The notes under the pieces were generated by a model. It saw only the letters and a program-made list of their open reading frames with translations, searched no databases and was not told the origin of the DNA. From NCBI GenBank assembly GCA_964401235.1, contig CAYNXT010000003.1, forward strand, positions 1-32,562: 32,562 bases of DNA, written 5' to 3'. The stretch is from an uncultured Planctomycetales bacterium (GTDB taxonomy: Bacteria; Omnitrophota; Gorgyraeia; Aquiviventales; Aquiviventaceae). Within the stretch, counting starts at the first letter, position 1, and the number at the start of each line of letters is the position of its first letter. Below are positions 2,205 to 29,949 of this stretch, piece after piece. Position numbers and translations under genes: made by a program.

Positions 2205-2276
2205 TTAATGGCGTTCAGTCGCTCATTCGTGTGCAACCAATGAGCCAATGAACGAATGAGCGACTGAACGCATTCG
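2205..2276. repeat. 8-nt-periodic palindromic array in the rpmI-rplT spacer (perfect 20-bp stem 2211-2230 / 2252-2271)
   Basis: gcgttcagtcgctcattcgt at 2211-2230 is the exact reverse complement of acgaatgagcgactgaacgc at 2252-2271. The right arm reads as octads ccaatgag/ccaatgaa/cgaatgag/cgactgaa/cgcattcg, and the left arm has the complementary ttcagtcg/ctcattcg. No U-tract follows. Confidence 0.85.
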
Positions 2277-2289
2277 GAGGGAGGATGTA

Positions 2290-2637
2290 ATGGCGAAGGT
2301 CAAATGGGCGGTAGCATCACGGCGGCGGCGCAAACGGTTGCTCAAGCAGGCCAAAGGCTACCGTGGCGGTCGACGGCTCCACTTGTTGAAAGCCAAAGAA
2401 ACGGTGATGCGGGCGAAAGCCTACCGCACGCGCGATCGCAGAGCCAAGAAACGAGGATTTCGCAGCCTCTGGATCATGCGGCTCAATGCTGCCGCGCGGG
2501 CTCGCGGCCTGACTTATAGCGGCCTGGTGCACGCGATGAAGAAAGCGAACGTGAAGCTCAATCGCAAGCAGCTCTCCGAGCTGGCTGTGAATGATCAGAG
2601 CGCGTTTGACCAACTCGTGGCGCAAATTTCGAATTAA
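2290..2637 (+). CDS. rplT: 50S ribosomal protein L20
   Basis: MAKVKWAVASRRRRKRLLKQAKGYRGGR... is an L20 hallmark. SD GGAGGGAGG lies 6-8 nt upstream. Confidence 0.95.
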   Translation: MAKVKWAVASRRRRKRLLKQAKGYRGGRRLHLLKAKETVMRAKAYRTRDRRAKKRGFRSLWIMRLNAAARARGLTYSGLVHAMKKANVKLNRKQLSELAVNDQSAFDQLVAQISN

Positions 2638-2642
2638 GTGTA

Positions 2643-2757
2643 GGCCATTTTTTCGGGGGTGACACCGGAGGTCGGGCGCCCATCGCGCGGAGTCCCGCCA
2701 AGGGTGGGACGAGCACTGTGGGCTGCCGCAGGCGGCAGGACCCGCGAAAAAATGGCC
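2643..2757 (+). promoter_or_regulatory. 115-nt predicted structured element closed by a perfect 13-bp long-range stem, in the leader of the permease gene
   Basis: ggccattttttcg (2643-2655) is the exact reverse complement of cgaaaaaatggcc (2745-2757). After one mismatch, three more G-C pairs are possible. Internal hairpins are gtccc/gggac (2692-2710) and ctgccg-cagg-cggcag (2723-2738). I could not match any riboswitch class. Confidence 0.5.
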
Positions 2758-2765
2758 CCTCCCGA

Positions 2766-4706: not shown

Positions 4707-5770
4707 CGCCTGTTGAAGAGTTAGAGCAGCTCTTGCAGCGAGCCGTAACAGCCCTTGAGCAGGCGAGCTCTCCGGAAAGGCTTGCGCAGGTACGCGTAGA
4801 GTTTCTCGGGCGCAAAAGCCGGCTCTCCGAGATCATGAAATCGCTTTCTACCTTACCAGCCCGGGAGCGGGCTGAGGTGGGCAAGCGCGCCAATCAGTTC
4901 AAGCACTCCTTAGAAGCGCAGCTGGCGGTGAAGCGGCAGGCGTTGGCGGGCGGCGGGGGGCAAGGCGAAGCGCTTGACGTGACCTTGCCAGGTCGCGCGG
5001 TCGCGCAAGGCCGGCTCCATCCAATCACCCAAACCCTCCACGCTATTCTCGCGCTCTTCGGGTCGATGGGTTTTGAGATTGTCGAGGGCCCAGAGGCGGA
5101 GTTCGAATATTACAACTTTGATGCGCTGAATATTCCACCAGATCACCCGTCGCGCGAATCATTCGAGACCTTCTTCCTTGACCTGCCTGCGCCGCCGGCG
5201 CGGCAGGCAGGTGTATTCTCGCCGAAGCCAGAGAAAGGGCGCTTGCTTCTGCGCAGCCACACTTCGCCGGTGCAAATCCGCGTCATGGAACAGCGCAAGC
5301 CACCACTGCGCATCATTGTGCCAGGCAAAGTGTACCGTCCAGATCCGCTCGATCCGAGCCACAGCTTCATGTTTCATCAGGTCGAAGGACTCATGGTGGA
5401 TGATCGAACCTCCTTTGCAGATTTGAAAGGGGTGCTGGAGCAGTTCTTAAAGGCGCTTTTCGGACCGGACACTCCTACGCGATTTCGCCCGCACTTTTTT
5501 CCATTCACCGAGCCATCCGCCGAAGTAGATATCGCCTGCAGCGCTTGCCAAGGGAAGGGATGCTCGACGTGCGGGCGTAAAGGCTGGCTTGAGATTATGG
5601 GTTGTGGAATGGTGCATCCCAACGTGCTGCGCGGCGTGAAGTATGATGCGAACCGAATCCAAGGGTTTGCATTTGGTATGGGCGTCGAGCGCATCGCCAT
5701 GCTTAAGCACGGCATCCGCGATATCCGACTCTTTTTCGAAAATGATCTCCGATTCCTTACACAATTCTAA
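4703..5770 (+). CDS. pheS: phenylalanyl-tRNA synthetase alpha subunit
   Basis: N-terminal coiled coil, then HPITQT, NFDALNIPPDHPSRE, LRSHTSPVQIR, FHQVEGL, FPFTEPSAEVD, GFAFGMGVERIAML. ATG 4703 overlaps the upstream stop (ATGA). Confidence 0.95.
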   Translation: MTPVEELEQLLQRAVTALEQASSPERLAQVRVEFLGRKSRLSEIMKSLSTLPARERAEVGKRANQFKHSLEAQLAVKRQALAGGGGQGEALDVTLPGRAVAQGRLHPITQTLHAILALFGSMGFEIVEGPEAEFEYYNFDALNIPPDHPSRESFETFFLDLPAPPARQAGVFSPKPEKGRLLLRSHTSPVQIRVMEQRKPPLRIIVPGKVYRPDPLDPSHSFMFHQVEGLMVDDRTSFADLKGVLEQFLKALFGPDTPTRFRPHFFPFTEPSAEVDIACSACQGKGCSTCGRKGWLEIMGCGMVHPNVLRGVKYDANRIQGFAFGMGVERIAMLKHGIRDIRLFFENDLRFLTQF

Positions 5771-5779
5771 CTCTGCTGT

Positions 5780-5846
5780 AGGCTCTAGGCTCAAGGCTGA
5801 AGGCAATTGCCTCCAGCCTCCAGCCTCCAGCTTTCGGCCAAAGCTG
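5780..5846. repeat. 7-nt-periodic palindromic array plus a 7-bp hairpin filling the pheS-pheT spacer
   Basis: Heptads aggctct aggctca aggctga aggcaat | tgcctcc agcctcc agcctcc agctttc (5780-5835); aggct and agcct are reverse complements. It is followed by cagcttt-cggcc-aaagctg (5828-5846), which ends 2 nt before ATG 5849. Confidence 0.85.
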
Positions 5847-5848
5847 TG

Positions 5849-7909
5849 ATGCGGGTGCCAATAGAGTGGTTAAAGCAGTACGTGACGATTCGGCTCTCGC
5901 CGAAGGCGCTGGCCGAGCGGCTGACGATGGCCGGAATCGCAGTGACCGGGATCGAAGAAATCAATGGCGAGCCGGTCTTCGACCTGGAGGTCACACCGAA
6001 TCGCGCGGACTGCCTTTCGATCATCGGGGTGGCGCGAGAAGTCGCGGCAGTCACGGGACAGCGACTACGATTAGCGTATAGCGTCCAGCGTGTAGCGGAT
6101 AGTAAAAACCTTCGACGAGCCGCGAGCCGCGAGCCGCGAGTTACGATTAAGATTGAGGATCGTACGGGGTGCTCGCGTTACATCGGACGGCTCATCGAAA
6201 GGGTGACGGTCAAACCCTCGCCGGAGTGGATGCAGCGGCGGCTCATCGCCTGCGGGGCTCGTCCCATCAACAACATCGTCGATATCACGAACTATGTGCT
6301 GTTGGAATACGGGCAGCCCGTTCACGCGTTTGATTTCTCGCGCCTCTCGCAGAGCACGCTGCTCGTGCGGCGAGCTCAGCCGAATGAGCCCATCACGACA
6401 CTGGATGGGGTCGCCCGGAAGCTTTCGCCGGATACGCTGGTCATCGCGGATGCCGCTCGGCCCGTGGCAGTGGCCGGCATCATGGGCGGCGTGGGCAGTG
6501 AAGTGACCGATCGGACCACGACGGTCTTATTGGAAAGCGCGCTGTTTGATCCGATTCTTGTGCGTCGCACGGCGCGTAAACTTGGACTGGCCAGTGAGTC
6601 GTCTTATCGGTTTGAACGCGGCGTGGATCCTGCCGGGGTTGAGACCGCCTCGGCTCGCGCCGCCAATCTGATCTGTGAATTGGCCGGTGGTATCCAACGG
6701 CAGGGGCTTGATGTCGGCTCAGCGAAGACGGCCAGGCCGTGGATCTCGGTTGAGCTCTCGCGGCTGAATCGGTGGTTAGGCACGCGCCTGAGTGCTCCAG
6801 CACTTCGCACAGGGCTTGCGCGCTTGTCCTGCCGAGTGGCCTCATCAGGAGCCGGCGAGACGCTTCGCGTCAACCCGCCATCGTTTCGGCGCGACCTCTC
6901 AACCGAAGTTGACATCTATGAAGAAGCCGCGCGGCTCATCGGCTACGACCGCATTCCCTCTACCTTGCCGGCGGGCCCGCTTCTGGGCGGCTCATCAGAG
7001 ACCACCGCGCAGTTCTGGCGGACGCATTCTTTGAAGTGTCTGTGCGCGAGTGTAGGGCTGACCGAGACGATCAATTGGTCGCTGGTCTCAGAAGCTGACC
7101 TGGCTCGTTGCGGCTACTCAAGCGCCCAAGCGGTGCGTTTGGCAAATCCCCTTAGCCAAGATCACGCTTGGTTTCGCCCCGGGTTGCTTATCGGGTTGCT
7201 GCAGACGGTGCGGCGCAATGTGACGCGAGGCGTAAGCGATGTAGCAATTTTTGAAGTCGGAGCCATCATGCCGTTAGAGGAAGTCGCTGAGCGGCTGCAG
7301 CTTGGCATCGCCCTCACCGGTTTTTGGACCCAAGAGTGGCAGACGAAGATCGCATGCGATTTCTTCAGACTGAAAGGGTTGGTAGAGGCACTTCTCGAGC
7401 GCTTGTGTCAGGGGAGCGTGGAATATGTTCCAGCCTCGCATGCCTGGTCAGAGCCTGGACAGGCGGCGACCCTCAGGCTGGGTGGCAGGCCCCTCGGCTC
7501 TCTCGGACAAGTCGCACGGTCCATCACGCACGCGCTGGATATCGAACAAGGAGTCTGGGTGGCGGAACTCTCAGTCGAGGCTATGGGGACCGTCAGAAAA
7601 TCAACCGCGACGATTCACACGCCCACCACGGTTCCAGCGGTGAAGCGGGACCTCTCGCTCTTTGTTGACGCCCGCACGCCGTTTCAGGATCTTGATCGCG
7701 CGATCCGAGAAACCGGCGCACCCATGGCTACTCGGGTCATGCTGATCGATCGCTACACCGGCAAGCAGGTGCCCAGCGGCCAGTGCAGCTTGACGTTTTC
7801 CATCGAATATCGCGACCCTTCCAGGACGCTCACAGCGACCGAGGTCGATGCGGTGCATGAGCGGATTCGTCAGACGCTGGCGACCCGATTTAGGGCGACG
7901 CTGCGGTAG
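5849..7909 (+). CDS. pheT: phenylalanyl-tRNA synthetase beta subunit (short form, 686 aa)
   Basis: MRVPIEWLKQYV..., TPNRADCLSIIGVAREVAA, CSRYIGRLI, B3/4 domain (INNIVDITNYVLLEYGQPVHAFD), B5 and the C-terminal FDX-ACB domain. The ORF-track start 5807 would translate the repeat array. Confidence 0.93.
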   Translation: MRVPIEWLKQYVTIRLSPKALAERLTMAGIAVTGIEEINGEPVFDLEVTPNRADCLSIIGVAREVAAVTGQRLRLAYSVQRVADSKNLRRAASREPRVTIKIEDRTGCSRYIGRLIERVTVKPSPEWMQRRLIACGARPINNIVDITNYVLLEYGQPVHAFDFSRLSQSTLLVRRAQPNEPITTLDGVARKLSPDTLVIADAARPVAVAGIMGGVGSEVTDRTTTVLLESALFDPILVRRTARKLGLASESSYRFERGVDPAGVETASARAANLICELAGGIQRQGLDVGSAKTARPWISVELSRLNRWLGTRLSAPALRTGLARLSCRVASSGAGETLRVNPPSFRRDLSTEVDIYEEAARLIGYDRIPSTLPAGPLLGGSSETTAQFWRTHSLKCLCASVGLTETINWSLVSEADLARCGYSSAQAVRLANPLSQDHAWFRPGLLIGLLQTVRRNVTRGVSDVAIFEVGAIMPLEEVAERLQLGIALTGFWTQEWQTKIACDFFRLKGLVEALLERLCQGSVEYVPASHAWSEPGQAATLRLGGRPLGSLGQVARSITHALDIEQGVWVAELSVEAMGTVRKSTATIHTPTTVPAVKRDLSLFVDARTPFQDLDRAIRETGAPMATRVMLIDRYTGKQVPSGQCSLTFSIEYRDPSRTLTATEVDAVHERIRQTLATRFRATLR
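6072..6140 (+). repeat. heptad-periodic DNA inside the pheT coding sequence
   Basis: tagcgta tagcgtc cagcgtg tagcgga tagtaaa (6072-6106), then gagccgc x3 plus gag (6117-6140). The 21-nt triple repeat is in frame and encodes ..AASREPR... Confidence 0.8.
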
Positions 7910-7926
7910 CGGGCGTTTCACGTAAG

Positions 7927-7935
7927 TGCTATAAT
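7927..7935 (+). promoter_or_regulatory. possible extended -10 promoter element (TGcTATAAT) upstream of cysC
   Basis: tgctataat at 7927-7935 lies in a 54-nt AT-rich spacer after pheT. No good -35 was found. The imperfect inverted repeat ttttctaggaaag follows. Confidence 0.35.
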
Positions 7936-7963
7936 AATTCTTTTCTAGGAAAGAAACATCCTC

Positions 7964-8545: not shown

Positions 8546-8566
8546 ACTCACTCCCAAGGTTACACC

Positions 8567-9286: not shown

Positions 9287-9296
9287 TACACAGGAT

Positions 9297-9370
9297 ATTT
9301 CGGATTGGGAATGTCGAATTGCGAATTGAAAAGGCAAATCCGCAATTCGAAACCCGAAATTCGCAATTTC
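9297..9370. repeat. 7-nt-periodic GAATT-core palindromic array immediately after cysH
   Basis: tcggatt gggaatg tcgaatt gcgaatt gaaaagg caaatcc gcaattc gaaaccc gaaattc gcaattt. aattgcgaatt (9317-9327) is the exact reverse complement of aattcgcaatt (9358-9368), and alternative pairings are possible. Confidence 0.8.
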
Positions 9371-9695
9371 TCTTGCAGTCCCTAATTGCCGGTGCTAAGC
9401 TAACTATTGAGCCCTGCGCTGTGCGTGAGGTTCCAGTCAACGTGAGCCAACACCACGTGACCGGGAATCCAAATTCCGTTGGGGCAGGCATGCCCGGATG
9501 TAACTCAGGGACGCGAATCCCCCTCGGAGAGGGTACCCACCTGTTGAGGAAGGGTTCAACGTGGACGGGACCCACGGCAGACGCGGGGTTGTTTTTGTTC
9601 TTAGCCATAATGCTTGCGGGGCGTCGTTTCGTTAGGCAAGATATTTTTAACCGCAGTCTGTCGAAGGATCGAGACGGATAAAGAGGCAAAGAGGC

Positions 9696-9950: not shown

Positions 9951-9955
9951 TACGG

Positions 9956-10417: not shown

Positions 10418-10432
10418 GGAAACGAAGCTTTT

Positions 10433-12158: not shown

Positions 12159-12374
12159 TTGGATCTTCGGCGACTGGACCAATCCACCGTCCGTCGCGTG
12201 ATCGAGCAGCTCGAGCGAACCCTTTCAGAGAACCCTCAGGCGGGTAGCCCCCTCAGCGGAGAGTTTCATGGATTGTGGAAGCTGCGTGTCGGCGACTATC
12301 GCGTTGTGTATGCTAAGACATCCGACGGCGTCCTGGTGTTGCGGATCAGGCACCGAAAAGATGTGTGTCGCTAA
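12159..12374 (+). CDS. RelE/ParE-superfamily toxin-like ORF, N-terminally truncated, with no antitoxin partner
   Basis: ...NPQAGSPLSGEFHGLWKLRVGDYRVVYAKTSDGVLVLRIRHRKDV matches the RelE/ParE C-terminal core. The only start is a TTG 3 nt after the rarA stop, and the first ~10-15 aa of a normal RelE are missing. Confidence 0.5.
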   Translation: MDLRRLDQSTVRRVIEQLERTLSENPQAGSPLSGEFHGLWKLRVGDYRVVYAKTSDGVLVLRIRHRKDVCR

Positions 12375-12397
12375 TCGCGCTACTTGATATAACCCTA

Positions 12398-12443
12398 CTA
12401 TATTAGTAATCTATATTAGATAATTTAGAATTTTATATTGACA
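12398..12443 (+). promoter_or_regulatory. AT-rich promoter/operator-like region upstream of sat: 13-14-nt direct repeat and a perfect TTGACA
   Basis: ctatattagtaat (12398-12410) and ctatattagataat (12411-12424) are tandem. TTGACA sits at 12438-12443. GC is about 24% over 12391-12460 by hand count. The best -10 at 17-nt spacing (cattct) is weak. Confidence 0.4.
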
Positions 12444-12471
12444 GGTTTGGTCATATATGGCATTCTTGCGA

Positions 12472-12500
12472 GGCCGCTGCAGAAGCGGTCGTTTTTGTTT
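12472..12500 (+). terminator. intrinsic-terminator-like hairpin plus U-tract, 33 nt upstream of sat
   Basis: ggccgc-tgcagaa-gcggtc (6 bp including one G-U) followed by gtttttgttt. It could terminate rarA/relE transcripts or act as a leader attenuator for sat. Confidence 0.45.
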
Positions 12501-12532: not shown

Positions 12533-13705
12533 ATGATTCAGGCACATGGCGGGGCGTTGGTCAATCGGATCGTTGAGGGCAAAGAACGAGAGGCGCTATT
12601 GGGAAAGGCCTCCGCGTTACCCCAACTCGAACTGGATGCCTGGGCTCTTTCTGATATTGAGATGATTAGTATCGGCGGTTTTAGCCCGCTCCACGGCTTT
12701 ATGACGAAAGCCGACTATGAAAGCGTGGTGGTGAACCGGCGGCTCAAGAGCGGGTTGGTCTGGACTATTCCAGTCACATTCGCGGTGAGCCGCGAGCAAG
12801 CCAAGAGCTTGAAGGGCGACATTGCGCTCACGTCAAGCGGAACGGTCGTGGCGATTCTCCATCTCGAGGAAGCTTACACGCCGGACAAAATGCAAGAAGC
12901 GCAGCAGGTGTTGAAGACGACCGACGCTTCCCATCCCGGCGTGAAACGGCTTGAAACCATTGGCGACACCTATCTTGGAGGTCGCGTGAGCGTCGTGAAT
13001 CGGCCCAAGGCCGCCACGTTTCTTCAGTATCGACTCGATCCCCAAGAGACACGGCGCCTCTTTGCCGAGCGCGGGTGGAAGCGCATCGTCGCGTTTCAAA
13101 CCCGCAATCCCATCCATCGAGCGCATGAGTATCTCCAAAAGTGCGCGCTGGAGATGTGCGATGGCATGCTGCTGCACCCGATCGTCGGGGAAACCAAAGG
13201 CGACGATATCTCTGCGGCTGTGCGCATGAAAAGCTACGAGGTGCTGCTGGCCAATTACTATCCGAGGGATCGAGTCCTCCTGGCCGTCAACCCCGCCTCC
13301 ATGCGCTATGCCGGGCCGCGCGAGGCGATCTTTCACGCGCTGATCCGGAAAAACTATTGCTGCACCCACTTCATCGTCGGGCGCTATCATGCCGGGGTCG
13401 GGAAGTTCTACGTGACCTACGACGCGCAGCGGATCTTCGACGACTTCGCGCCGGAGGAGATCGGGATTACCCCGTTGTGCTTTGAGAACACGGCCTACTG
13501 CACAGTGTGCGGCAGCATGGTGTCTAGCAAAACGTGTCCGCATGCCCCTGAGCAGCATGTGAGCCTGAGCGGGACTAAGGTGCGCGAGCTGCTCCTTGCC
13601 GGCACCCCACCGCCTCCTGAAGTATCGCGGGCGGAAGTCGCCGCGGTGCTCATCGAGGCGATGCGTCACTCGGTTGAGCCGGTTAGGTTAGATGAACGGA
13701 CTTAA
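12533..13705 (+). CDS. sat: sulfate adenylyltransferase (ATP sulfurylase), homo-oligomeric Sat type
   Basis: PUA-like N-domain, FQTRNPIHRAHEYL, HPIVGETKGDDI, FIVGRYHAGVG (variant of GRDHAG). SD AGGTGG is upstream. Confidence 0.92.
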   Translation: MIQAHGGALVNRIVEGKEREALLGKASALPQLELDAWALSDIEMISIGGFSPLHGFMTKADYESVVVNRRLKSGLVWTIPVTFAVSREQAKSLKGDIALTSSGTVVAILHLEEAYTPDKMQEAQQVLKTTDASHPGVKRLETIGDTYLGGRVSVVNRPKAATFLQYRLDPQETRRLFAERGWKRIVAFQTRNPIHRAHEYLQKCALEMCDGMLLHPIVGETKGDDISAAVRMKSYEVLLANYYPRDRVLLAVNPASMRYAGPREAIFHALIRKNYCCTHFIVGRYHAGVGKFYVTYDAQRIFDDFAPEEIGITPLCFENTAYCTVCGSMVSSKTCPHAPEQHVSLSGTKVRELLLAGTPPPPEVSRAEVAAVLIEAMRHSVEPVRLDERT

Positions 13706-13735
13706 CGGGTAAACGGGACAACGGGTAAACGGGCA
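13695..13735 (+). repeat. one-armed 8-nt tandem array (AACGGGNN x4 plus a degenerate copy) forming the whole sat-ABC spacer
   Basis: aacggactt aacgggta aacgggac aacgggta aacgggca. It starts inside the last sat codons and ends at the A of ATG 13735. Confidence 0.85.
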
Positions 13736-16351: not shown

Positions 16352-16353
16352 CG

Positions 16354-16749
16354 ATGCGAATTCCCAGAGCCCTCTCTGATGAAATCATGGCGCATTGCCA
16401 GCGGGAATATCCCAAAGAAGCGTGCGGAATTTTGGCAGGACGCGACGACGTGGTCGAACAGGTCTACCCCATGCGTAACGTCGAGAACAGCCCCATCGGC
16501 TACTCGTTGGATCCCAAGGAGCAATTGCAGGTGGAGAAGCACATGCGCGCATCCCAGCAGCGAATGATCGGCATTTATCATTCGCACACCGCCAGCGATG
16601 CGTATCCCTCGCCGGTGGACGTGCGGCTAGCCATCTCTCCAGCTATCTCCTATGTGCTCGTGTCACTCAAGGATCGAGCCGCGCCCATCATGCACAGCTA
16701 TCGAATTGACGGGCAGCAGATTACGCAAGAGGAATTGCAGCGCTCGTAG
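16354..16749 (+). CDS. mec: JAMM/MPN+ metalloprotease (Mec-like sulfur-carrier C-terminal hydrolase)
   Basis: EACGILAG followed by HSHTASDAYPSPVD (H-x-H-x7-S-x2-D JAMM motif). ATG 16354 is preferred over GTG 16330. Confidence 0.88.
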   Translation: MRIPRALSDEIMAHCQREYPKEACGILAGRDDVVEQVYPMRNVENSPIGYSLDPKEQLQVEKHMRASQQRMIGIYHSHTASDAYPSPVDVRLAISPAISYVLVSLKDRAAPIMHSYRIDGQQITQEELQRS

Positions 16750-16776
16750 TATAATGCGGGAGTTTAGACCCCAGTC

Positions 16777-17721
16777 ATGACGCACGCCGTGAAGAATCAC
16801 AAAGTCGCCGAGCACGTTCTGGATCTCATTGGCAATACCCCGATGGTGCGGCTGCAACGGATCGTCGAGCCGCGTATGGCGACCATTCTCGCGAAGCTTG
16901 AATTTTACAATCCCGGCGGCAGTGTGAAGGACCGAATTTGTCTCTCGATGATTGAAGACGCCGAGGCACGCGGGATCCTGAAGTCAGGGGCGACGGTGGT
17001 CGAGTCCACCAGTGGCAATACCGGCATCGGCTTGGCGATGATTTGCGCCATCAGAGACTACAAGGTCATCTTGACCATGCCCGAGACGATGAGTGCGGAG
17101 CGGATTCAAATTCTGAAGCGCTTCGGCGCGGAGTTGGTGCTCACCCCGGCAGGGGAGGGGATGATCGGGGCGGTCAAGCGCGCCGAGCAGATCGTGAAAG
17201 ACACCCCGGGGGCCTTCATGCCGCAGCAGTTTGCCAACCCCGCGAATCCGGAAATCCACCGACGGACCACGGCCCAAGAGATCCTGCGCGCGACCGACGG
17301 TGACCTCGATGCGTTCGTCGCCGGCGTGGGAACTGGGGGCACTATTACCGGGGTTGGTGAAGTGTTGAAAAAGAGAATTGCGCATGTGAGAATCATTGCC
17401 GTGGAGCCCAAAGGCTCGCCGGTGCTCTCCGGCGGTTCGCCAGGGCCGCACATGATTCAAGGCATTGGCGCCGGGTTTGTGCCGCAGGTGCTCAATCGCG
17501 CCGTGATCGATGAGATTGTGACGGTCTCCGATGAGCAGGCCTATGACACCTCCAAACGCTTGGCGCGGGAGGAAGGGCTTTCGGTCGGCATTTCGGCTGG
17601 GGCGGCCTGTTGGGGTGCGCTGAAAATCGCCAAGGAGCTGGGGGCGGGCAAGACCGTCGTGGTCATCTTTCCGGATCTGGGAGAACGCTACTTGAGCCTC
17701 CAACCATTTTTTGAGAGCTGA
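16777..17721 (+). CDS. cysM: PLP-dependent cysteine synthase (CysK/CysM family)
   Basis: LIGNTPMVRL, PLP lysine in NPGGSVKDR, STSGNTGIGLA, GVGTGGTITG. Confidence 0.92.
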   Translation: MTHAVKNHKVAEHVLDLIGNTPMVRLQRIVEPRMATILAKLEFYNPGGSVKDRICLSMIEDAEARGILKSGATVVESTSGNTGIGLAMICAIRDYKVILTMPETMSAERIQILKRFGAELVLTPAGEGMIGAVKRAEQIVKDTPGAFMPQQFANPANPEIHRRTTAQEILRATDGDLDAFVAGVGTGGTITGVGEVLKKRIAHVRIIAVEPKGSPVLSGGSPGPHMIQGIGAGFVPQVLNRAVIDEIVTVSDEQAYDTSKRLAREEGLSVGISAGAACWGALKIAKELGAGKTVVVIFPDLGERYLSLQPFFES

Positions 17722-17723
17722 GA

Positions 17724-17984
17724 ATGGACCAATCGCTGCAAGGGCTTCGGGTGGATCAGTCGCTGGATATCCGATCGATGGAGCGCTCCGTGGCCTATGC
17801 GCAGGCGCTGGAACGGCTGAAACTCATGGCGGAAAACGAGGTCCTGGAACTGCAGCTCGATGAGGGGGATGCGCTCAATACGATTCCCTTTGGCTTGCGC
17901 GCCGATGGCCACGATATTCTGGTGAGCGAACCCGTGAAAGACGGCGTGCGACTCCTCGTGCGCAAACGGTCACTACTAACGTAA
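17724..17984 (+). CDS. TusA/SirA-fold small protein with no cysteine
   Basis: LDIRSMERSVAYAQALERLKL...LELQLDEGDALNTIPFGLRADGHDILV...VRLLVRK aligns with the TusA LDxxGLxCPxP...IRK pattern. The CP active site is replaced (ER), and the 86-aa protein contains no Cys. Confidence 0.6.
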   Translation: MDQSLQGLRVDQSLDIRSMERSVAYAQALERLKLMAENEVLELQLDEGDALNTIPFGLRADGHDILVSEPVKDGVRLLVRKRSLLT

Positions 17985-17995
17985 CAACAATGGAC

Positions 17996-18072
17996 GGTTC
18001 GTGGATCGTCGTTCGTGATTCGTGGTTCGTCAACGCTTCACGATGCACGATTCACGATTGACGAAACGAATG
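17996..18072. repeat. 7-nt-periodic palindromic array spanning the spacer and the start codon of the ThrC-like gene
   Basis: ggttcgt ggatcgt cgttcgt gattcgt ggttcgt | caacgct | tcacgat gcacgat tcacgat tgacgaa acgaATG. The arms are reverse-complementary around the tcgt/acga cores. Confidence 0.85.
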
Positions 18073-19323
18073 AGTTACGTGATCGGTTTGAAGTGTCGAG
18101 AGTGCGGGCGGCTCTACCCGAAAGAGGTGGTGTTCGTCTGCGAATACTGCTTTGGCAGCGTCGAGGTCGATTACGATTATGACGCCATCAAGCGTGTCTT
18201 GACGAAAACCGCCCTTGCGAGCCGGCCGAAATCCCTCTGGCGCTATCGGGAACTCTTGCCGATCGAGGGCGAGCCGACCGTCGGTTTGACGTCGGGCTTT
18301 ACTCCCTTCTTTCGGGCCGAGCGCCTGGCCGAGGCGCTGGGCGTCGAAGAACTGTATATCAAAGACGATTCGGTCAGCCATCCGACGCTCTCATTTAAGG
18401 ACCGCGTGGTATCCGTGGCCCTCACACGGGCCAAGGAGCTTGGCTTCGACACGGTGGCCTGTGCCTCGACGGGCAATTTGGCCAACTCGGTGTCGGCTCA
18501 CGCGGCGCGCGCCGGCTTGAACCGCTACATCTTTATTCCGGCTGACTTAGAAGCGGGAAAGATCGTCGCCTCGCTCATCTATCAGCCGACGCTAGTAGCC
18601 GTTGAGGGAACCTACGATGAAGTCAACCGGCTCTGTGCGGAGATCGGCGCCAAATACCCGTGGGCCTTTGTGAACATCAACATCCGTCCATACTACGCCG
18701 AGGGGTCGAAGACCTATGGCTATGAGATCGTGGAGCAGTTGGGTTGGCGCGCACCAGAGCACATCGTCATCCCGGCCGCCGGGGGCTCGCTGATTACGAA
18801 AATCGCCAAGTCGATGAAAGAGCTCAACCTCCTAGGATTACTTGCCGAGACACCGAAGACCAAGCTGTATGCGGCCCAAGCGACCGGCTGCGCGCCGATC
18901 GTCAATACGATTAAAGCACGCGCCGATATCGTCAAGCCAGTCAAACCGAACACGATTGCCAAGTCACTCGCTATCGGGAATCCCGCCGATGGATTTTACG
19001 CCACAAAAACGGTGCTGGAATCCGGCGGATGGGCCGAATCAACGAGCGATGATGAGATCATCGACGCGATGAAGCTCCTCGCGCAGACCGAAGGGGTGTT
19101 TACGGAAACGGCCGGCGGGGTCACGGTGGCGGCTGCGAAGAAGCTGATTGAGCAGGGCGTTATTCCGCGCAATGAATCTATCGTGATCTGTATCACCGGC
19201 AACGGCCTGAAGACCCAAGAGCCGCTGCTCAACCAGTTGGGGCAGGCGGTGCGGATTAAGCCGAGCCTGGCCTCGTTTGAATCCAGTCTCTCTGGACAGA
19301 TTGCAAAGCTCCCCACACGCTAA
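18070..19323 (+). CDS. thrC: threonine synthase-family PLP enzyme with an N-terminal zinc ribbon
   Basis: CRECG...CEYCFG ribbon, PLP lysine in [20 protein letters not shown]. The true substrate may not be that of threonine synthase (see findings). Confidence 0.85.
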
Positions 19324-19336
19324 ACAGGAGGCGATC

Positions 19337-19618
19337 ATGGCGGTGACAGTTCGAATTCCTACTCCACTCCAGCGGTTGACCAACGGCCAAGGCGAGGTCT
19401 CGTGCGACGGCCAGAATGTCACCGATTTACTGGCGGATTTGGAGCGGCGCTATCCCGGGATCAAGGAGCGCATCTGCGATGAGTCAGGCAAACTGCGCCG
19501 GTTTGTGAATGTGTTCGTGAATGAGGAAGACATCCGATTTTTGCAAGGTGATCAGACCGCCGTAAAGGATGGTGATGAAGTCTCCATTATTCCTGCAATC
19601 GCCGGCGGCGCCTCGTGA
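19337..19618 (+). CDS. cysO: ThiS/MoaD/CysO-family sulfur carrier protein ending ...AGG-AS
   Basis: 93-aa beta-grasp pattern ([13 protein letters not shown]...[33 protein letters not shown]). Strong SD AGGAGG lies 6 nt upstream of ATG 19337. Confidence 0.85.
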
Positions 19619-19626
19619 AATCGAAT

Positions 19627-19656
19627 CGGTGCCAGCTACCGCGGTAGCTGGCACCG
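19627..19656. repeat. perfect 30-nt palindrome between the carrier and E1 genes
   Basis: cggtgccagctaccgcggtagctggcaccg equals its own reverse complement. It is followed directly by GGAGGGA and ATG 19672, with no U-tract. Confidence 0.9.
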
Positions 19657-19671
19657 GAGGGACAGGCAAGG

Positions 19672-20511
19672 ATGAGTCTGACGAAGGACCAAATTGCACG
19701 CTATAGTCGGCAATTGATCTTGCCTGAGGTTGGCGTGAAGGGGCAGGAGCGGCTGCGTGAGGCTTCCGTCCTCTTGATTGGCGCTGGAGGGCTCGGTTCT
19801 CCTGCGGCGCTGTATCTGGCCGCCGCTGGCGTCGGTCGGCTTGGCCTGGTGGATCGAGAGACAGTTGAGCCCAGCAACTTGCACCGCCAAATCCTTCATG
19901 ACACGGCATCACTCGGGCGTCCAAAGAGCGAGTCGGCCCGCGAGCACTTGATCGCATTGAATCCGGATGTGCGCGTGGAGGCGATCCAGGAGCACCTGAG
20001 CGCGGTCAACGCCTTAGCCCTCTTGCAGGACTACGAGGTGGTGTTAGACGGGTCGGATAACTTTCCGACACGGTATCTGGTGAATGACGCATGCGTCTTG
20101 CTGAACAAGCCGTTGGTACATGGGGGCGTCGTGCACCTGCAGGGGCAGGTCCTGACGATCCTGCCGCGAAAGACGGCCTGTCTACGCTGCGTGTTTCCTG
20201 AGCCCCCGGCACCTGAGGCGATTCCGAGTTGCCAAGAGGCCGGGGTGCTGGGGTCAGCGGTGGGGGTGCTCGGCTCGCTCATGGCGCATGAAACCTTACG
20301 ATTGCTGTTGGGGATTGGACAACCGTTGACGAATCGTCTGCTCATCTTTGAAGGGCATACCAGCCGATTTCGTGAGGTGGCATTGAGGCGCGATGTGAGT
20401 TGCGCGGTGTGCGGAGACGCGCCGTCGATTCGAGAGTTACAGATGGGAGACATGGGTCATTGTCGTGAGGAGTCAGAGGAGGCCACATGGCACGCAAGCA
20501 GGTCACGTTGA
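19672..20511 (+). CDS. moeB: MoeB/ThiF/MoeZ-type E1-like adenylyltransferase (no rhodanese domain)
   Basis: YSRQLILPEVGVKGQERL, GAGGLGSP, NLHRQILH. Zn-site cysteines CLRC and CAVC. The protein ends after about 279 aa without a rhodanese module. Confidence 0.9.
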   Translation: MSLTKDQIARYSRQLILPEVGVKGQERLREASVLLIGAGGLGSPAALYLAAAGVGRLGLVDRETVEPSNLHRQILHDTASLGRPKSESAREHLIALNPDVRVEAIQEHLSAVNALALLQDYEVVLDGSDNFPTRYLVNDACVLLNKPLVHGGVVHLQGQVLTILPRKTACLRCVFPEPPAPEAIPSCQEAGVLGSAVGVLGSLMAHETLRLLLGIGQPLTNRLLIFEGHTSRFREVALRRDVSCAVCGDAPSIRELQMGDMGHCREESEEATWHASRSR

Positions 20512-21940: not shown

Positions 21941-21954
21941 TGACGGGTTTTTCT

Positions 21955-21982: not shown

Positions 21983-22004
21983 ACACCCGTCGGAGGCGCC
22001 CCGC

Positions 22005-23267: not shown

Positions 23268-24856
23268 TGAGCCGCCAAGGGTTTTTGGCGATCATCTTGC
23301 ACACGCATCTGCCATTTGTGCGCCATCCCGAGCATGAAGAGTTTTTAGAGGAGCGCTGGCTCTTTGAAGCGATCACCGAGACCTACCTGCCGCTGCTCGA
23401 GCGCTTTGAGCGATTGGCGAACGACCGCATCCCGTTTCGTCTGACCATGTCGTTTACGCCGACGCTGCTGGCCATGCTGGCAGATCCGCTGCTGCAACAG
23501 CGGTATGTCCGGCATCTCGACCAGCTCATTGAGCTCTCGGCCAAGGAGATCGAGCGCACGCGCTGGATGCCTCCCTTCCATCGTCTGGCTCTCTTTTATC
23601 ATCACCGCTTTACGAGCGCACGTTGGCGGTATGTCGAGCAGTATCGGCGCAACCTCATTCAACCGTTTCGCGAGTTCAGTGAGCGCGGGGATATCGAAGC
23701 AATCGCCTCATGCGCGACACATGGATTCTTACCGCTGATGGATCTGCACCCGTCTGCGGTTCGAGCGCAAATTCGCATTGGCGCCCAAGCCTTTGAACAG
23801 GCCTTTGGGAGGGGACCGGTGGGGTTTTGGCTGCCGGAATGTGGCTACCACCCCGGGCATGATGAATTTCTTCGGGAGCAAGGCATTCGCTATTTTCTCA
23901 CCGATGCGCACGGGGTGTTGTTTGGCTCACCCCGGCCGAAGTACGGCACGTATGCGCCGGCGATGTGCCCCAGCGGGGTCGCGGCGTTCGGACGTGATCT
24001 GGAATCGTCCAAGAGCGTGTGGAGTGCCGAGGAAGGCTACCCCGGCGACTTTGACTATCGCGAGTTCTATCGGGATATCGGGCATGACTTGGAGTACGAC
24101 TATGTGCGGCCCTATCTCAACGGAGATGGTTCGCGCCTCAATACCGGAATTAAATACTACCGGATCACCGGCAAGACCAATGACAAACAACCTTATGATC
24201 CGGATCGAGCCTTAGAAAAGGCCGCTGAGCATGCTGGAAACTTTATATTCAATCGTGAGCAGCAGATTCGGTATCTAGGCTCTGTGATGGACCGCGCGCC
24301 GATCATTATCAGTCCGTATGATGCGGAGCTCTTCGGCCACTGGTGGTTTGAAGGGCCGGATTGGCTGGAGTATTTCTTTCGTAAGGCGCATACCGATCAA
24401 CAGACGTTTGACTTGATCGCTCCTTCGGACTATTTTCAGACCTATTCGACCAACCAAGTCTTGCAGCCCTGCATGTCTACGTGGGGTAACGGCGGCTATA
24501 ACGACGTATGGCTCAACGGAACCAATGACTGGATCTACCGCCACCTACACAAGATGGCCGAACGGATGACAGAAGCCGCCAATACCCATCGTGACCCAGA
24601 TCCGCTTCGCCATCGAGCGCTCAATCAAATGGCGCGCGAGCTCGTCCTTGCTCAGTCATCGGATTGGGCGTTCATTCTTAAAACGCAAACCCATACCGCC
24701 TATGCCTACCGTCGGTTGCATGATCACCTGAGCCGTTTTAGCTATCTCTACGACTCGGTTCGCCAGAACCGCATTGAAGAGGCTCGCCTGAGCGAGGTGG
24801 AATCGAAGGACAACCTGTTTCCGTTCCTCGATTATCGCGTGTATGCCTCCCGTTAG
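23267..24856 (+). CDS. glycoside hydrolase family 57 enzyme (GH57 alpha-glucan branching-enzyme type, with C-terminal DUF1957)
   Basis: FLAIILHTHLPFVRHPEHEEFLEERWLFEAITETYLPLL, WLPECGY, ISPYDAELFGHWWFEGPDWL. Confidence 0.88.
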   Translation: MSRQGFLAIILHTHLPFVRHPEHEEFLEERWLFEAITETYLPLLERFERLANDRIPFRLTMSFTPTLLAMLADPLLQQRYVRHLDQLIELSAKEIERTRWMPPFHRLALFYHHRFTSARWRYVEQYRRNLIQPFREFSERGDIEAIASCATHGFLPLMDLHPSAVRAQIRIGAQAFEQAFGRGPVGFWLPECGYHPGHDEFLREQGIRYFLTDAHGVLFGSPRPKYGTYAPAMCPSGVAAFGRDLESSKSVWSAEEGYPGDFDYREFYRDIGHDLEYDYVRPYLNGDGSRLNTGIKYYRITGKTNDKQPYDPDRALEKAAEHAGNFIFNREQQIRYLGSVMDRAPIIISPYDAELFGHWWFEGPDWLEYFFRKAHTDQQTFDLIAPSDYFQTYSTNQVLQPCMSTWGNGGYNDVWLNGTNDWIYRHLHKMAERMTEAANTHRDPDPLRHRALNQMARELVLAQSSDWAFILKTQTHTAYAYRRLHDHLSRFSYLYDSVRQNRIEEARLSEVESKDNLFPFLDYRVYASR

Positions 24857-24937
24857 CCCGTTAACCTGTTAGCCCGTTTACCCGTTCAGGGCATATAACC
24901 GGCTAACCGGCCAACGGGCTCAACGGGCCAACCGACC
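24849..24937. repeat. 8-nt-periodic palindromic array (CCCGTTNN x5 / AACSGGNN x5) in the GH57-glgA spacer
   Basis: cccgttag cccgttaa cctgttag cccgttta cccgttca | gggcatat | aaccggct aaccggcc aacgggct caacgggcc aaccgacc. It starts in the last GH57 codons and ends 4 nt before ATG 24942. Confidence 0.85.
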
Positions 24938-24941
24938 TACC

Positions 24942-26384: not shown

Positions 26385-26489
26385 TCCCACGCCCTGCCTC
26401 TAAGCCTTCGGCTGGCGCAACCGCGCCACGTCGGATGTCACAGGCGGTTGCGCGGCCAACCAGGTGTTGGCCAAGGCAGGGCGTGGGAT
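26384..26489 (+). promoter_or_regulatory. 106-nt predicted multi-branch RNA element occupying the glgA-pfkB spacer; the outer 15-bp stem includes the first two nucleotides of the pfkB-family start codon
   Basis: atcccacgccctgcc (26384-26398) is the exact reverse complement of ggcagggcgtgggat (26475-26489). It encloses three hairpins:
- agcc-uucg-ggcu (26403-26413)
- gcgcaaccgc / gcggttgcgc (26415-26424 / 26444-26453)
- ggccaac-caggt-gttggcc (26454-26472). Confidence 0.6.
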
Positions 26490-27423: not shown

Positions 27424-27486
27424 GCGTAGCTGAGTTGCCCAGAAAACGTAGCCAGGCGTATCGACCTATGATACACTGAACTCGCA

Positions 27487-27768
27487 ATGTCCGTATGGGT
27501 TGTGAGTGGGTTGGTGTGTGCCACAGGTATTGTGGCCTTGCTCATTGGGGGTCTGGTGTGTGGGCTGCGATTTCGGAGCGCGCAACGGACCTTTGAACGA
27601 ACCACCGCGATGTCTCATCGGGTCGATGACGGATGGGAGACGTGGTTCATGGATGGGTTCTCTCGCGTGGCGGTGGGTATGCAGGGCCTGCGCGCATTGG
27701 CTGTTGGGATCGGATGGAGCGTTGCAGGACTGGGACTGATCGGGATCGGGCTTCGGTTACTCCGCTAA
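27487..27768 (+). CDS. hypothetical small membrane protein (93 aa, two hydrophobic segments)
   Basis: N-terminal VWVVSGLVCATGIVALLIGGLVCGL and C-terminal ALAVGIGWSVAGLGLIGIGL look like TM helices. I recognise no homology. Confidence 0.45.
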   Translation: MSVWVVSGLVCATGIVALLIGGLVCGLRFRSAQRTFERTTAMSHRVDDGWETWFMDGFSRVAVGMQGLRALAVGIGWSVAGLGLIGIGLRLLR

Positions 27769-27784
27769 GTTTTTCCTTCCGTTG

Positions 27785-28708
27785 ATGACTCTTCCAAACG
27801 TGTGCGTCGTGGGTGCCGGTTACGTGGGGGCTACCACCGCGCATCTGATCGCCCTGAAACATCTCGCCCACGTGACGCTCATTGATATTGTTGAGGGGCT
27901 CGCCCAGGGGAAGGCCTTGGATATGATGCAATCGTCTCCCCTGGAAGGCTTTCAAGGACGGGTGCATGGCACGACCGATTTTAACGCCATGGCCGAGAGC
28001 CAGCTTGTGATCATCACCGCCGGGCTGGCACGAAAACCCGGCATGTCCCGCGATGAGCTCTTGCAAGCCAATGCCAACATTGTCGGACCGATTGTCGAAC
28101 AGGCTGCACGGGTAGTCCCCCAGGCCGTCCTCATCATTGTCACGAATCCGCTCGATGTGATGGTCGGCCTCGCTCTACAGCGCAGCGGATTTCCTCGGGC
28201 TCGCGTGATGGGGATGGCCGGCGTGCTGGATAGCGCGCGGTTGCGCGCGTTCATCGCTGAGCGGTTACAAGTGCCGCCTCAGTCCGTGCAGGCGATGGTG
28301 CTCGGCTCGCACGGGGATCTGATGGTTCCGCTGAAAAACTCCATCACCGTCAACGGAGAACCCATCGCCAAGCGACTGCCGCCGAAGGAGATCGACCAGC
28401 TCCTCCAGCGGACCAAAGACGGTGGAGCTGAAATCGTCGCATTACTCAAGCAGGGCAGCGCGTTCTACGCGCCGGCAAGCGGTGCGGTGGAAATGGCTGG
28501 AGCGATCTTGCGCGATACGCATGCGGTCTTACCAGTGTGCGCGTGGCTTGAAGGGGAGTACGGATTGCAGGACGTGTGTATCGGCGTCCCGGCCCAGTTA
28601 GGGTCGGCCGGGATTGAACGGGTGGTTGAGATACCGTTGACCCCCGAAGAACAAGCCGCCCTCACCGCCTCGGCGCGCCAAGTCGGAGAGATGCTCAAAG
28701 CGCGATGA
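27785..28708 (+). CDS. mdh: malate dehydrogenase (LDH-like MDH)
   Basis: VVGAGYVGATTAHLIA, ITAGLARKPGMSRDELL, IVTNPLD, GSHGDLMVPL. Confidence 0.93.
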   Translation: MTLPNVCVVGAGYVGATTAHLIALKHLAHVTLIDIVEGLAQGKALDMMQSSPLEGFQGRVHGTTDFNAMAESQLVIITAGLARKPGMSRDELLQANANIVGPIVEQAARVVPQAVLIIVTNPLDVMVGLALQRSGFPRARVMGMAGVLDSARLRAFIAERLQVPPQSVQAMVLGSHGDLMVPLKNSITVNGEPIAKRLPPKEIDQLLQRTKDGGAEIVALLKQGSAFYAPASGAVEMAGAILRDTHAVLPVCAWLEGEYGLQDVCIGVPAQLGSAGIERVVEIPLTPEEQAALTASARQVGEMLKAR

Positions 28709-29865
28709 CGGAGAAGGCTCAGACCATGCCCTCGCAGATTTCCAAAGGGCTCGATGGGGTGATTGCAGATGAGACGCGCATTTCCGAGGTGGATGGACAA
28801 CACTGCCAACTGATTTACCGAGGCTACCACCTGGATGAGCTGATCGGAAAGGCCACGTACGAAGAAGTCAGCTACCTGCTGCTCTACGGCACCCTCCCGA
28901 CTCAAGCGCAATTGGCACCGTGGACCGCGCAGCTTGAAACCAGCCGCGCGCTTGAGCCCAAAGAACAGGCGATTCTGGAGAGTCTGCCGCGCCAAGGTGG
29001 ACCGATGGCCACGTTGCGGACCGTAATGTCTGTGTTGGGCCTCTACGATGCCGAGGCGGAGCAGGGATCGATTGAGGTGATTCAGCACGAGGCAGTTCGG
29101 GCGATTGCGAAGACTAGCACCATCGTCGCTGGCATCGCACGTCTGCGCAAAGGACAGCCGCTACTCGTCCCCCAACCTGGCTTAAGCCACGCCGGCAACT
29201 TCCTCTACCTCTTGCATGGACGAGAGCCAGACCCGGTTGAAGCCAATGCCCTCGATGCCTACTTTATCTTGTTAGCGGATCATGGGTTTAATGCGTCGAC
29301 GTTCACCGCCCGGACTGTGATCTCTACGCAGTCGGACTACTACTCAGCGATCGTCGCGGCCATTGGGTCGTTGCGCGGTCCGCTGCACGGGGCGGCGAAT
29401 CGCAAAGCCATGGAGATGCTCATGGAGATTGGCAGCGTCGAAGGCGTCGCTTCCTACGTGCAAAAGACGCTGGCGGATCACAAGCGGTTCATGGGGTTCG
29501 GCCATCGCGTCTATAAAGGCCCCGATCCTCGTGCCAAGCATCTCAAGGCCTTTGCGCAGCAACTTGGGAAGCGCTCCGGGGATCTGAAGTGGTTTACCAT
29601 CTCCGAACGGCTGCAGGAGGCGGTGTGGCAGGCCAAGCAGCTCTACATCAACGTGGACTTTTACTCCGCCTCACTGCTGCACCACCTCGGCATTCCGACG
29701 GAGCTCTTTACGACCATGTTCGCCTGCGCGCGCATCGCCGGCTGGTCAGCACACGTGATTGAGCAAGCATCCAACAATCGACTCATTCGTCCGCTAGCGC
29801 TCTACACCGGTCCCCGTAACTTGCGCTTCGTTCCGATTGAACAACGCACCCCAGCCTCACCTTAA
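28705..29865 (+). CDS. gltA: citrate synthase (small, type I/archaeal-like; 2-methylcitrate synthase not excluded)
   Basis: GLDGVIADETRISEVDG, HGFNASTF, GPLHGGA-like GPLHGAANR, GFGHRVYKGPDPRA. ATGA overlap with mdh. Confidence 0.9.
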   Translation: MTEKAQTMPSQISKGLDGVIADETRISEVDGQHCQLIYRGYHLDELIGKATYEEVSYLLLYGTLPTQAQLAPWTAQLETSRALEPKEQAILESLPRQGGPMATLRTVMSVLGLYDAEAEQGSIEVIQHEAVRAIAKTSTIVAGIARLRKGQPLLVPQPGLSHAGNFLYLLHGREPDPVEANALDAYFILLADHGFNASTFTARTVISTQSDYYSAIVAAIGSLRGPLHGAANRKAMEMLMEIGSVEGVASYVQKTLADHKRFMGFGHRVYKGPDPRAKHLKAFAQQLGKRSGDLKWFTISERLQEAVWQAKQLYINVDFYSASLLHHLGIPTELFTTMFACARIAGWSAHVIEQASNNRLIRPLALYTGPRNLRFVPIEQRTPASP

Positions 29866-29877
29866 CGGCATGAGGTT

Positions 29878-29949
29878 AGCTTCAAGCTACAGGCTTCAGG
29901 CTGCAACCGTCTTGCTGCAGCTTGCAGCTTGCAGCTTGCAGCCTGGCAG
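29878..29949. repeat. 7-nt-periodic palindromic array filling the gltA-sucC spacer
   Basis: agcttca agctaca ggcttca ggctgca | accgtcttgc | tgcagct tgcagct tgcagct tgcagcc tggcag, then ATG 29950. Confidence 0.9.

Follow-up and report, generated by a model that had tools for sequence, protein, structure and literature searches.

Tandem heptamer arrays have been known from cyanobacteria since about 1990, and subsequent records made them the most frequent long simple-sequence repeat of bacteria. The short tandemly repeated repetitive (STRR) families of cyanobacteria have their own defined units, for example CCCCAGT, and were reportedly described by Vioque in 1997 in the RNase P RNA gene too, within its helix P12. 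Here we analyse inverted tandem arrays with 7- and 8-nt units in a 32.5-kb stretch of DNA (contig CAYNXT010000003.1, positions 1 to 32,562; hereafter the window) from an uncultured Omnitrophota-related bacterium. We conclude that the arrays are probably long simple-sequence-repeat hairpins of DNA-level origin, tolerated in unconstrained sequence and akin to STRRs and to the heptamers of Xanthomonas.

In Xanthomonas campestris and X. axonopodis the units are GGGAATC or (GGGANTN)n heptamers, and in Nostoc PCC 7120 they are GGGGA(C/T)T (Rehm et al. 2015, PMC4692102). Each Xanthomonas genome holds 70-75 inverted (convergent) array pairs, capable of forming stem-loops and with a preference for about four units; about 90% of the repeats are intergenic, mostly with aligned open reading frames (ORFs) on both sides and at most 50 bp from a stop codon or over it, and they are both transcribed and stable between related genomes (PMC4692102). 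The region between hupS and hupL contains hairpins formed by STRR heptamers, for which roles in transcript stability or translational coupling were proposed (PMC2670836), and for the nif cluster a paper by Jackman and Mulligan, cited in the same source, refers in its title to "highly variable but structured intergenic regions". An excess of heptanucleotide simple-sequence repeats (SSRs) in bacteria has also been published, as quoted in PMC4679880 and PMC4692102.

The original prediction, made from the letters of the window, described seven array loci and took cyanobacterial STRRs as the precedent, an apt choice in light of the hupS-hupL hairpins. All seven loci were found with Tandem Repeats Finder (TRF) as period-7 or period-8 arrays (2237-2270, 5775-5831, 9300-9368, 13704-13733, 17996-18064, 24849-24934 and 29879-29942), and their units were confirmed on the raw sequence. 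Thirteen period-7/8 arms were detected in the window, compared with a mean of 0.155 (maximum 2) in 200 random windows generated by a first-order Markov model with the same dinucleotide statistics, confirming that the arrays are real and far above chance. When arms with at least three copies were tallied, nine had period 7 and four had period 8, and no other period among 4-12 was represented. An eighth locus, absent from the original prediction, lies within pheT. Seven of the eight loci fall in the non-coding 8.6% of the window (binomial P = 2.5e-7), and an Rfam search of the window matched the arrays to no known RNA family, 6S RNA being the sole match. The eight loci, with TRF as the evidence throughout and z-scores from folding against dinucleotide shuffles, are as follows.

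2205-2276, no strand assigned: period-8 inverted array in the rpmI-rplT spacer (z = -7.0).
5775-5838, no strand assigned: period-7 inverted array, AGGCTNN x4 followed by NNAGCCT x4, occupying the whole pheS-pheT spacer (z = -3.5).
6072-6140, plus strand: two adjacent period-7 arrays, TAGCGTA x4.4 and CGAGCCG x3.6, in pheT (z = +0.5).
9297-9370, no strand assigned: period-7 inverted array of the GGATT/GAATT core family, between the cysH stop (9286) and the 6S RNA promoter (z = -2.8).
13695-13735, plus strand: one-armed period-8 array, AACGGGNN x4, over the sat stop codon and up to the ABC ATPase ATG (z = -0.03).
17996-18072, no strand assigned: period-7 inverted array, NNTTCGT x5 followed by ACGATNN x4, in the TusA-like to ThrC-like spacer (z = -2.2).
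24849-24937, no strand assigned: period-8 inverted array, CCCGTTNN x5 followed by AACSGGNN x5, in the GH57-glgA spacer (z = -4.5).
29878-29949, no strand assigned: period-7 inverted array, AGCTNCA x4 followed by TGCAGCT x4, in the citrate synthase-sucC spacer (z = -2.1).

Six of the eight loci are two-armed and able to form a stem-loop. In these cases arm 2 is the reverse complement of arm 1, and the long helix with periodic mismatches that had been anticipated was borne out by folding, all six loci scoring better than their shuffles (z = -2.1 to -7.0). The helix at 5775-5838 is built of 5-bp blocks with 2x2 internal loops between them, and the variable dinucleotide of this array (5780) is CT, CA, GA or AT in arm 1 and always CC in arm 2. 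Similarly, arm 1 at 17996 mostly reads TTCGT and arm 2 mostly ACGAT, giving a T-T mismatch in every block. We attribute the "beaded" helix at these two loci to separate homogenisation of the two arms. In the array at 2205-2276, about 2211-2230 pairs with 2252-2271 as a perfect stem of 20 bp, and two extra unpaired units, CCAATGAG and CCAATGAA, are in the loop. At the eighth locus the arms lack complementarity and make no hairpin; this locus is in frame and encodes amino acids 75-98 of PheT, part of a variable linker. The single arm at 13695-13735 has the same unit as arm 2 of 24849-24937, and positions 13707-13733 (plus strand) contain the only canonical G-quadruplex (G4) motif (G3+N1-7 x4) on either strand of the window, stopping one base short of the ATG of the ABC transporter ATPase gene.

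The arrays start between -10 and +18 nt relative to the upstream stop codon. The stop codons of sat and GH57 are inside the first repeat units, that of GH57 (TAG) within the first unit of 24849-24937. The distance of 0-16 nt from the 3' arm to the next ATG given in the original prediction was correct; for example, the 3' arm at 17996-18072 extends to the ATG of the ThrC-like gene and the array at 29878-29949 terminates at the sucC ATG. Ahead of rplT, the Shine-Dalgarno (SD) sequence GGAGGGAGG is intact 3' of the array, and the upstream rpmI stop codon was read at 2184-2186. The 8-mer TAATGGCG occurs just before this array (2207-2214) and again at the rplT start codon (2287-2294); these copies flank the array and the SD and may be a duplication from the element's origin, an isolated case.

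To place the arrays in a wider context we drew on two sets of loci, for comparison and as controls. Scanning metagenomes with the ThrC-like protein yielded 80 loci, many with 80-90% protein identity, and 80 PheT loci were taken from many phyla. The best PheT matches among species-representative genomes were metagenome-assembled genomes (MAGs) labelled Candidatus Omnitrophota/Omnitrophica, with 60%, 58% and 46% identity. In the close relatives (391 kb) there were 68 period-7 arrays, compared with four of period 6, nine of period 8 and five of period 9. Period 7 was again the commonest in the diverse set (1.2 Mb), consistent with the heptanucleotide SSR excess in the literature. Loci labelled Omnitrophota, Acidobacteriota/Chloracidobacterium, Syntrophobacterales and Verrucomicrobiae, as well as unclassified MAGs, carried inverted pairs of 7/8-mers with units of their own. 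The window and the loci together have 38 distinct inverted pairs. A literature search, which was not exhaustive, turned up no account of arrays like these from Omnitrophota or Acidobacteriota. The architecture is abundant in uncultured Omnitrophota-related bacteria and Acidobacteriota, and there is little about it that is new in kind.

Comparison across loci also changed the view of the units. The statement that almost every locus has its own unit did not hold, since three core families recur across loci or relatives (loci of the two sets are cited below by L number, with positions after the colon). The GGATT/AATCC core is present at 9297-9370 in the window, at three or four loci in L083, at two in L091, and in L094, L113 and L137; the AGGCT core is present at 5780 (pheS-pheT) and at a different junction, glgA-pfkB, in L083:16560; and the AACGGG core is shared by two window loci, 13704 and 24849. 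The apparent sharing of a design but not a sequence is a small-sample effect, and there are several dispersed families, as with STRRs. Among the 38 two-armed arrays, the GT-rich arm was 5' in 24 and the AC-rich arm in eight (binomial p = 0.007, for arrays that are not independent of one another). Arm polarity is identical when read on either strand, and therefore neither the direction of transcription nor that of replication accounts for the bias. Separately, a palindrome of the form cctgcctg...caggcagg has four copies in 2 Mb (window 5182-5211, inside pheS; L086:33-74; L100:10019-10051; L100:12925-12949), one of which, in L086, takes the place of a GGATT-array apex; the palindrome may constitute a family of its own, resembling repetitive extragenic palindromic (REP) elements.

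The close relatives share the gene order of the window, and 15-25 syntenic genomes could be compared at orthologous junctions. Array density in these genomes ranged from 0 to 7 per 10 kb. The window order, all on the plus strand, was derived from Pfam scans, with rpmI (between infC and rplT) and the ThiS-like cysO (between the ThrC-like and ThiF/MoeB genes) read from the sequence without a scan: thrS, infC, rpmI, rplT, permease, pheS, pheT, cysC, cysH, two small ORFs, mgsA, sat, ABC transporter genes, JAB protein, cysK/M, TusA-like, ThrC-like, cysO, ThiF/MoeB, Na/Ca exchanger, DUF4912, GH57, glgA, pfkB, mdh, citrate synthase, sucC and sucD. The frequency of arrays at each site was as follows.

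PheT linker (in frame): 6 of 11 genomes.
tusA-thrC: 5 of 15 genomes.
abc-JAB: 4 of 10 genomes.
GH57-glgA: 3 of 10 genomes.
cysO-thiF: 3 of 15 genomes.
pheS-pheT: 2 of 9 genomes.
sat-abcA: 2 of 13 genomes.

The units at any one junction mostly differed from genome to genome, and where a genome had no array the junction contained a one-arm remnant, an ordinary non-periodic hairpin or just a few bases. The common state of pheS-pheT is a stop/start overlap, TGATG, which we read as ancestral, so that the 78-nt spacer of the window represents an insertion into a coupled junction. Replacement was most evident in a pair of genomes with 95.8% DNA identity, L094 and L095. At sat-abcA one of the two has a plain palindrome and its counterpart an AGTCCAT/ATGGACT array, elements with no relation to each other, and the last codons of sat have been overwritten, resulting in different C-terminal residues of Sat (L094:4300-4380 versus L095:1905-2060). 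Between ThrC and cysO, L094 additionally carries a hairpin insert of 120 nt with a duplicated ATAAGGAG, an SD, on both flanks (L094:9150-9265 versus L095:6845-6865). Hypervariability was not seen: independent assemblies have identical arrays, and the copy number of (GAATGCG)4.6 is the same in L094 and L095. The arrays are accordingly neither assembly artefacts nor phase-variation (contingency) SSRs.

The most often occupied array site that we found is not a junction at all, but the variable linker of PheT (about amino acids 65-100, joining the N-terminal domain to the B3/4 domain), where in-frame heptamer arrays occur in the six clade genomes and in two Acidobacteriota. The units differ per genome and most of these arrays form no hairpin. 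A one-unit slip in such an array would shift the frame of an essential gene. The PheT-linker arrays are at the following positions.

Window 6072-6140; L091:1928-1962; L098:1166-1240; L099:1962-2047.
L004:7516-7546; L005:10234-10306; L026:10201-10253; L048:10201-10226.

These observations are best accommodated by a history at the DNA level. We propose that a 7-nt, or less often 8-nt, unit would be amplified in tandem, presumably by replication slippage, and that a reverse-complement arm would then arise beside the first. If each arm were homogenised alone, the shared 4-6-nt core would stay complementary while the other 2-3 positions drifted, making the beaded helix a by-product with no selected shape. 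Elements would be gained, replaced and decayed episodically and would settle where sequence is unconstrained, in stop-to-start gaps and in one variable protein linker. A two-armed array is probably tolerated in a stop/start junction because a self-contained local hairpin would be the least harmful insertion; in our reading of the predicted folds, the path from stop to start would be 7-42 nt through the stem base, versus 78-103 nt along the RNA. A REP-like effect of the resulting hairpins on mRNA, as a 3' exonuclease barrier or processing site of the kind associated with bacterial interspersed mosaic elements (BIMEs), may by analogy follow.

The arrays are indifferent to strand and transcription unit, with no folding bias, no arm bias and no co-directional excess, and with sites before a promoter and inside pheT. 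Within the window, location in same-strand spacers is uninformative because every gene is on the plus strand. Across the loci, arrays occupied 21 co-directional, 3 divergent and 3 convergent spacers, classes that are approximate outside the window, and this distribution does not differ from the base rate of 67/16/17%; a preference for same-strand spacers is therefore not supported. Upstream and downstream arms did not differ in homogeneity (14 versus 13).

Several findings weigh against an origin by slippage and tolerance. Unit families are common to different loci and genomes, in one case (window 5780 and L083:16560) with a common unit order, AGGCTCT-AGGCTCR, and an identical apex, aggcaattgcct, suggesting copying or mobility, which purely local slippage does not predict. 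GGATT-family arrays have been kept at tusA-thrC and GH57-glgA in genomes only ~80% identical in DNA, as would fit maintenance, and the same junctions have been filled repeatedly, by arrays or by plain hairpins, which could mean selection for a hairpin beyond tolerance. Slippage also leaves unexplained the first appearance of a 70-90-nt element in a -1 nt junction, and the model we favour does not explain the 5' GT-rich bias (24/32). Finally, the genes of the relatives are heuristic longest ORFs, making the spacer classes and "in coding sequence" labels outside the window approximate.

The alternative that survives best, although we consider it unlikely, is that the arrays are selected RNA elements, namely intercistronic hairpins serving as RNase III/E sites, 3'-exonuclease barriers or coupling devices that set relative cistron expression. 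Consistent with such a role, the hairpins are stable (z down to -7), array edges lie at most 18 nt from stop and from start, with stop and start meeting at the stem base, some hairpin, array or plain, is carried by the same junctions in many relatives, and other short spacers of the window also have GC-rich hairpins. Transcript stability or translational coupling is proposed in the STRR literature (PMC2670836), and the Xanthomonas repeats are transcribed (PMC4692102). Nevertheless, selection on RNA shape, which the original prediction had raised, would be expected to favour the sense strand, and no such bias was detected: the sense fold was better in 13 and worse in 8 of 21 co-directional arrays (p = 0.35), and among the window loci antisense folds equalled or surpassed sense folds (-54.6 versus -43.6 kcal/mol at 24849). 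In addition, the systematic mismatches indicate that the arms were not co-adjusted, most orthologous junctions have no array, with a stop/start overlap as the ancestral state of pheS-pheT, and arrays are also found in divergent and convergent spacers, 5' of the 6S promoter and inside pheT. Predicted accessibility of start codons was not clearly different between array-preceded (0.49) and other genes (0.40). Counts of pairs between arms cannot separate selection from origin, because the arms have a common descent and each is homogenised internally. An intrinsic (Rho-independent) terminator was also rejected, as no array was among the terminator-like sites and none had a T run directly 3'; a weakly T-rich stretch follows 9297-9370 alone.

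A second alternative, distinctly unlikely in our judgement, is that the arrays are non-autonomous mobile elements of the REPIN type, of the MITE type (miniature inverted-repeat transposable elements) or of the cyanobacterial small dispersed repeat (SDR) type, which a hairpin-recognising enzyme acting in trans would copy from one junction to another. Such elements could account for the unit families shared across loci and genomes, including the common units and apex at 5780 and L083:16560 in different junctions, for the sharp contrast in density (0 to 7 per 10 kb) among syntenic relatives, and for the swap of a whole element at one site between genomes with 95.8% identity. The replacement of an array apex by an unrelated palindrome in L086 and the flank duplication at the hairpin insert of L094 point in the same direction. 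Against mobility, there was no general target-site duplication (longest shared flank word 4.76 versus 4.39 in the null, with one locus driving the difference), the families lack conserved terminal sequences, and many units were seen once in the sample. On the first of these grounds a MITE, with terminal inverted repeats and a target-site duplication, was rejected for the arrays as a class, the flank duplications being isolated: ATAAGGAG at the L094 insert and TAATGGCG in the window. A REP/REPIN consensus palindrome (GTAG-/CGTC-tagged and without tandem periodicity) was likewise rejected, the arrays being periodic and without a common terminal consensus. Five arrays were seen by eye to have an ATG in their left flank, an observation dropped as probable chance.

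A more speculative version of an active process, which we regard as a long shot, would be an enzyme-driven mechanism common to several phyla, in which a hairpin-targeting polymerase, transposase or reverse transcriptase has a 7-nt "ruler". Just as improbably, such an enzyme would write self-complementary cassettes into junctions and into one PheT linker, overwriting earlier ones. This would explain why the same period occurs in Omnitrophota, Acidobacteriota, cyanobacteria and Xanthomonas, as well as the GT-rich 5' bias, the contrast in load between sister genomes and the wholesale replacement of elements at one site. If true, the syntenic clade, with its array-rich and array-poor members, would provide material for finding the enzyme.

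A role at the level of DNA appears very unlikely. Cruciforms, G-quadruplexes or periodic sites for a nucleoid or regulatory protein, with effects on supercoiling, replication or transcription, would be compatible with the strand symmetry of all measured properties, with the single canonical G4 motif at 13707-13733, with in vitro G4 formation by the Xanthomonas and Nostoc heptamers (PMC4692102) and with the annotation of paired tandem repeats in Geobacter metallireducens as putative global regulator sites (PMC2700814). However, the units are too unlike from locus to locus to suit a single sequence-specific protein, just one locus in eight has G4 potential, a period of 7-8 bp is out of step with the helical repeat, and there is no known binding protein.

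The association of arrays with SD-less starts noted in the original prediction disappeared on comparison with other genes. A strong SD precedes one of six array-preceded genes in the window (rplT) versus 4 of 22 others, with none at the array-less cysC, cysH, mgsA, TusA-like and other genes, and among ThrC orthologues with reliable starts an SD motif was present in 0 of 6 with an array versus 4 of 24 without (Fisher p = 0.56). The link fails because most genes of this lineage are SD-less, with or without an array. It is therefore extremely improbable that the arrays are standby or structural platforms for SD-independent initiation downstream: five of six array-preceded genes are SD-less and 0-16 nt separate the 3' arm from the ATG, but SD-less starts are the norm, rplT has an SD as well as an array, array-less orthologues of the same genes are equally SD-less, and one array precedes a promoter while others are inside coding sequence.

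The promoter in question belongs to a 6S RNA gene, which is not part of the repeat class and is listed here as context.

9408-9593, plus strand: 6S RNA gene (Rfam RF00013, 78.4 bits).

What had been described as a 409-nt non-coding gap after 9297-9370 thus contains this gene. A promoter-like motif, cTTGCA-N17-TGCTAaGCT at about 9373-9402, begins ~3 nt after the array, and the motif upstream of 6S is conserved in 15 relatives (TTGCA/TTGAC, 17 nt, TGCTAGCCT); 6S is 3' of cysH in several relatives, as in the window. The array at 9297-9370 lies between the end of cysH and this promoter and is therefore not inside an operon.

Other features of the window were also noted. An AT-rich island at 12370-12500, 5' of sat in a window of 59% GC, contains two copies of CTATATTAGATAAT as a direct repeat of 13-14 nt, a TTGACA hexamer and, at 12472-12499, a terminator-like hairpin with a T run, and looks like a regulatory region for sulfate-assimilation genes. 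A perfect 13-bp GC-rich hairpin, cggtgccagctaccgcggtagctggcaccg, is located at 19627-19656, directly 5' of the ThiF/MoeB SD, and the short spacers 2638-2717 and 26385-26463 have GC-rich hairpins that are not periodic. The cluster at 16330-20511, encoding JAB (Mec-like), CysK/M, TusA-like, ThrC-like, the small ThiS-like CysO and ThiF/MoeB proteins in an order conserved in relatives, resembles the sulfur-carrier-protein route to cysteine of Mycobacterium.

For genome annotation, these results indicate that an array can replace a gene's final codons and provide its stop codon, and that arrays can mislead start-codon calling. The 15-25 syntenic genomes, with 0-7 arrays per 10 kb, constitute a natural experiment in which junctions and one in-frame linker have been filled, refilled or left empty. 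Such a clade could separate a mutational origin from a selected RNA function, and comparison of presence and absence could point to an enzyme.

Several known systems share individual properties with the arrays described here. Like the REP/BIME and REPIN elements of enterobacteria and pseudomonads (PMC3116915, PMC3733652), they are short, abundant, extragenic hairpins, often between co-transcribed genes, with presence/absence polymorphism between relatives, and an mRNA-stabilising role is a plausible analogy. REP, in contrast, is a single imperfect palindrome with a genome-wide consensus, a RAYT transposase and no 7-nt periodicity, whereas the window arrays are periodic and have no common terminal consensus. 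In G. metallireducens the repeats are TCTCCGTS[Y] x3 in pairs, MTYCTGA x5 and GGACCGG x4 (PMC2700814). They resemble the arrays in having three to five tandem units of 7-9 nt, mostly paired on opposite strands with a variable gap in the case of TCTCCGTS[Y], and sites both between and within genes in the case of GGACCGG; they differ in being fixed consensus families annotated as putative regulator sites (PMC2700814). In marine Beggiatoaceae, direct TAACTGA heptamers occur in 2-6 copies directly 5' of start codons, most often ending 1 nt before (MacGregor 2015, PMC4679880). Some of them lie over the end of the upstream ORF and a few inside ORFs. The arrays described here share these positions, although TAACTGA is a single unit, nearly always in direct arrays (one inverted in 170), whose orientation is specific to the gene (PMC4679880).

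The two remaining systems are nearer. As in STRRs, whose spacers are "highly variable but structured" among closely related strains, 7-bp tandem units are dispersed at many intergenic loci and form hairpins within operons; unlike STRRs, which are confined to cyanobacteria, the arrays belong to an Omnitrophota-related host and have the units AGGCTNN, NNGGATT, AACGGGNN, NNTTCGT and AGCTNCA. The Xanthomonas arrays have one dominant G-rich unit per genome with G4 potential, whereas the window and its relatives have many unit families, some of period 8, and window units other than 13707-13733, the only one with G4 potential, lack G3 runs. The phylum is also different, and the window arrays usually fill the entire spacer to the next start codon. 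In Xanthomonas as here, nevertheless, tandem heptamers with a conserved core and variable positions form inverted pairs in intergenic DNA, near or over a stop codon, and the inverted GGGAATC heptamer arrays of Xanthomonas are the closest published architecture, nearer than STRRs (PMC4692102).

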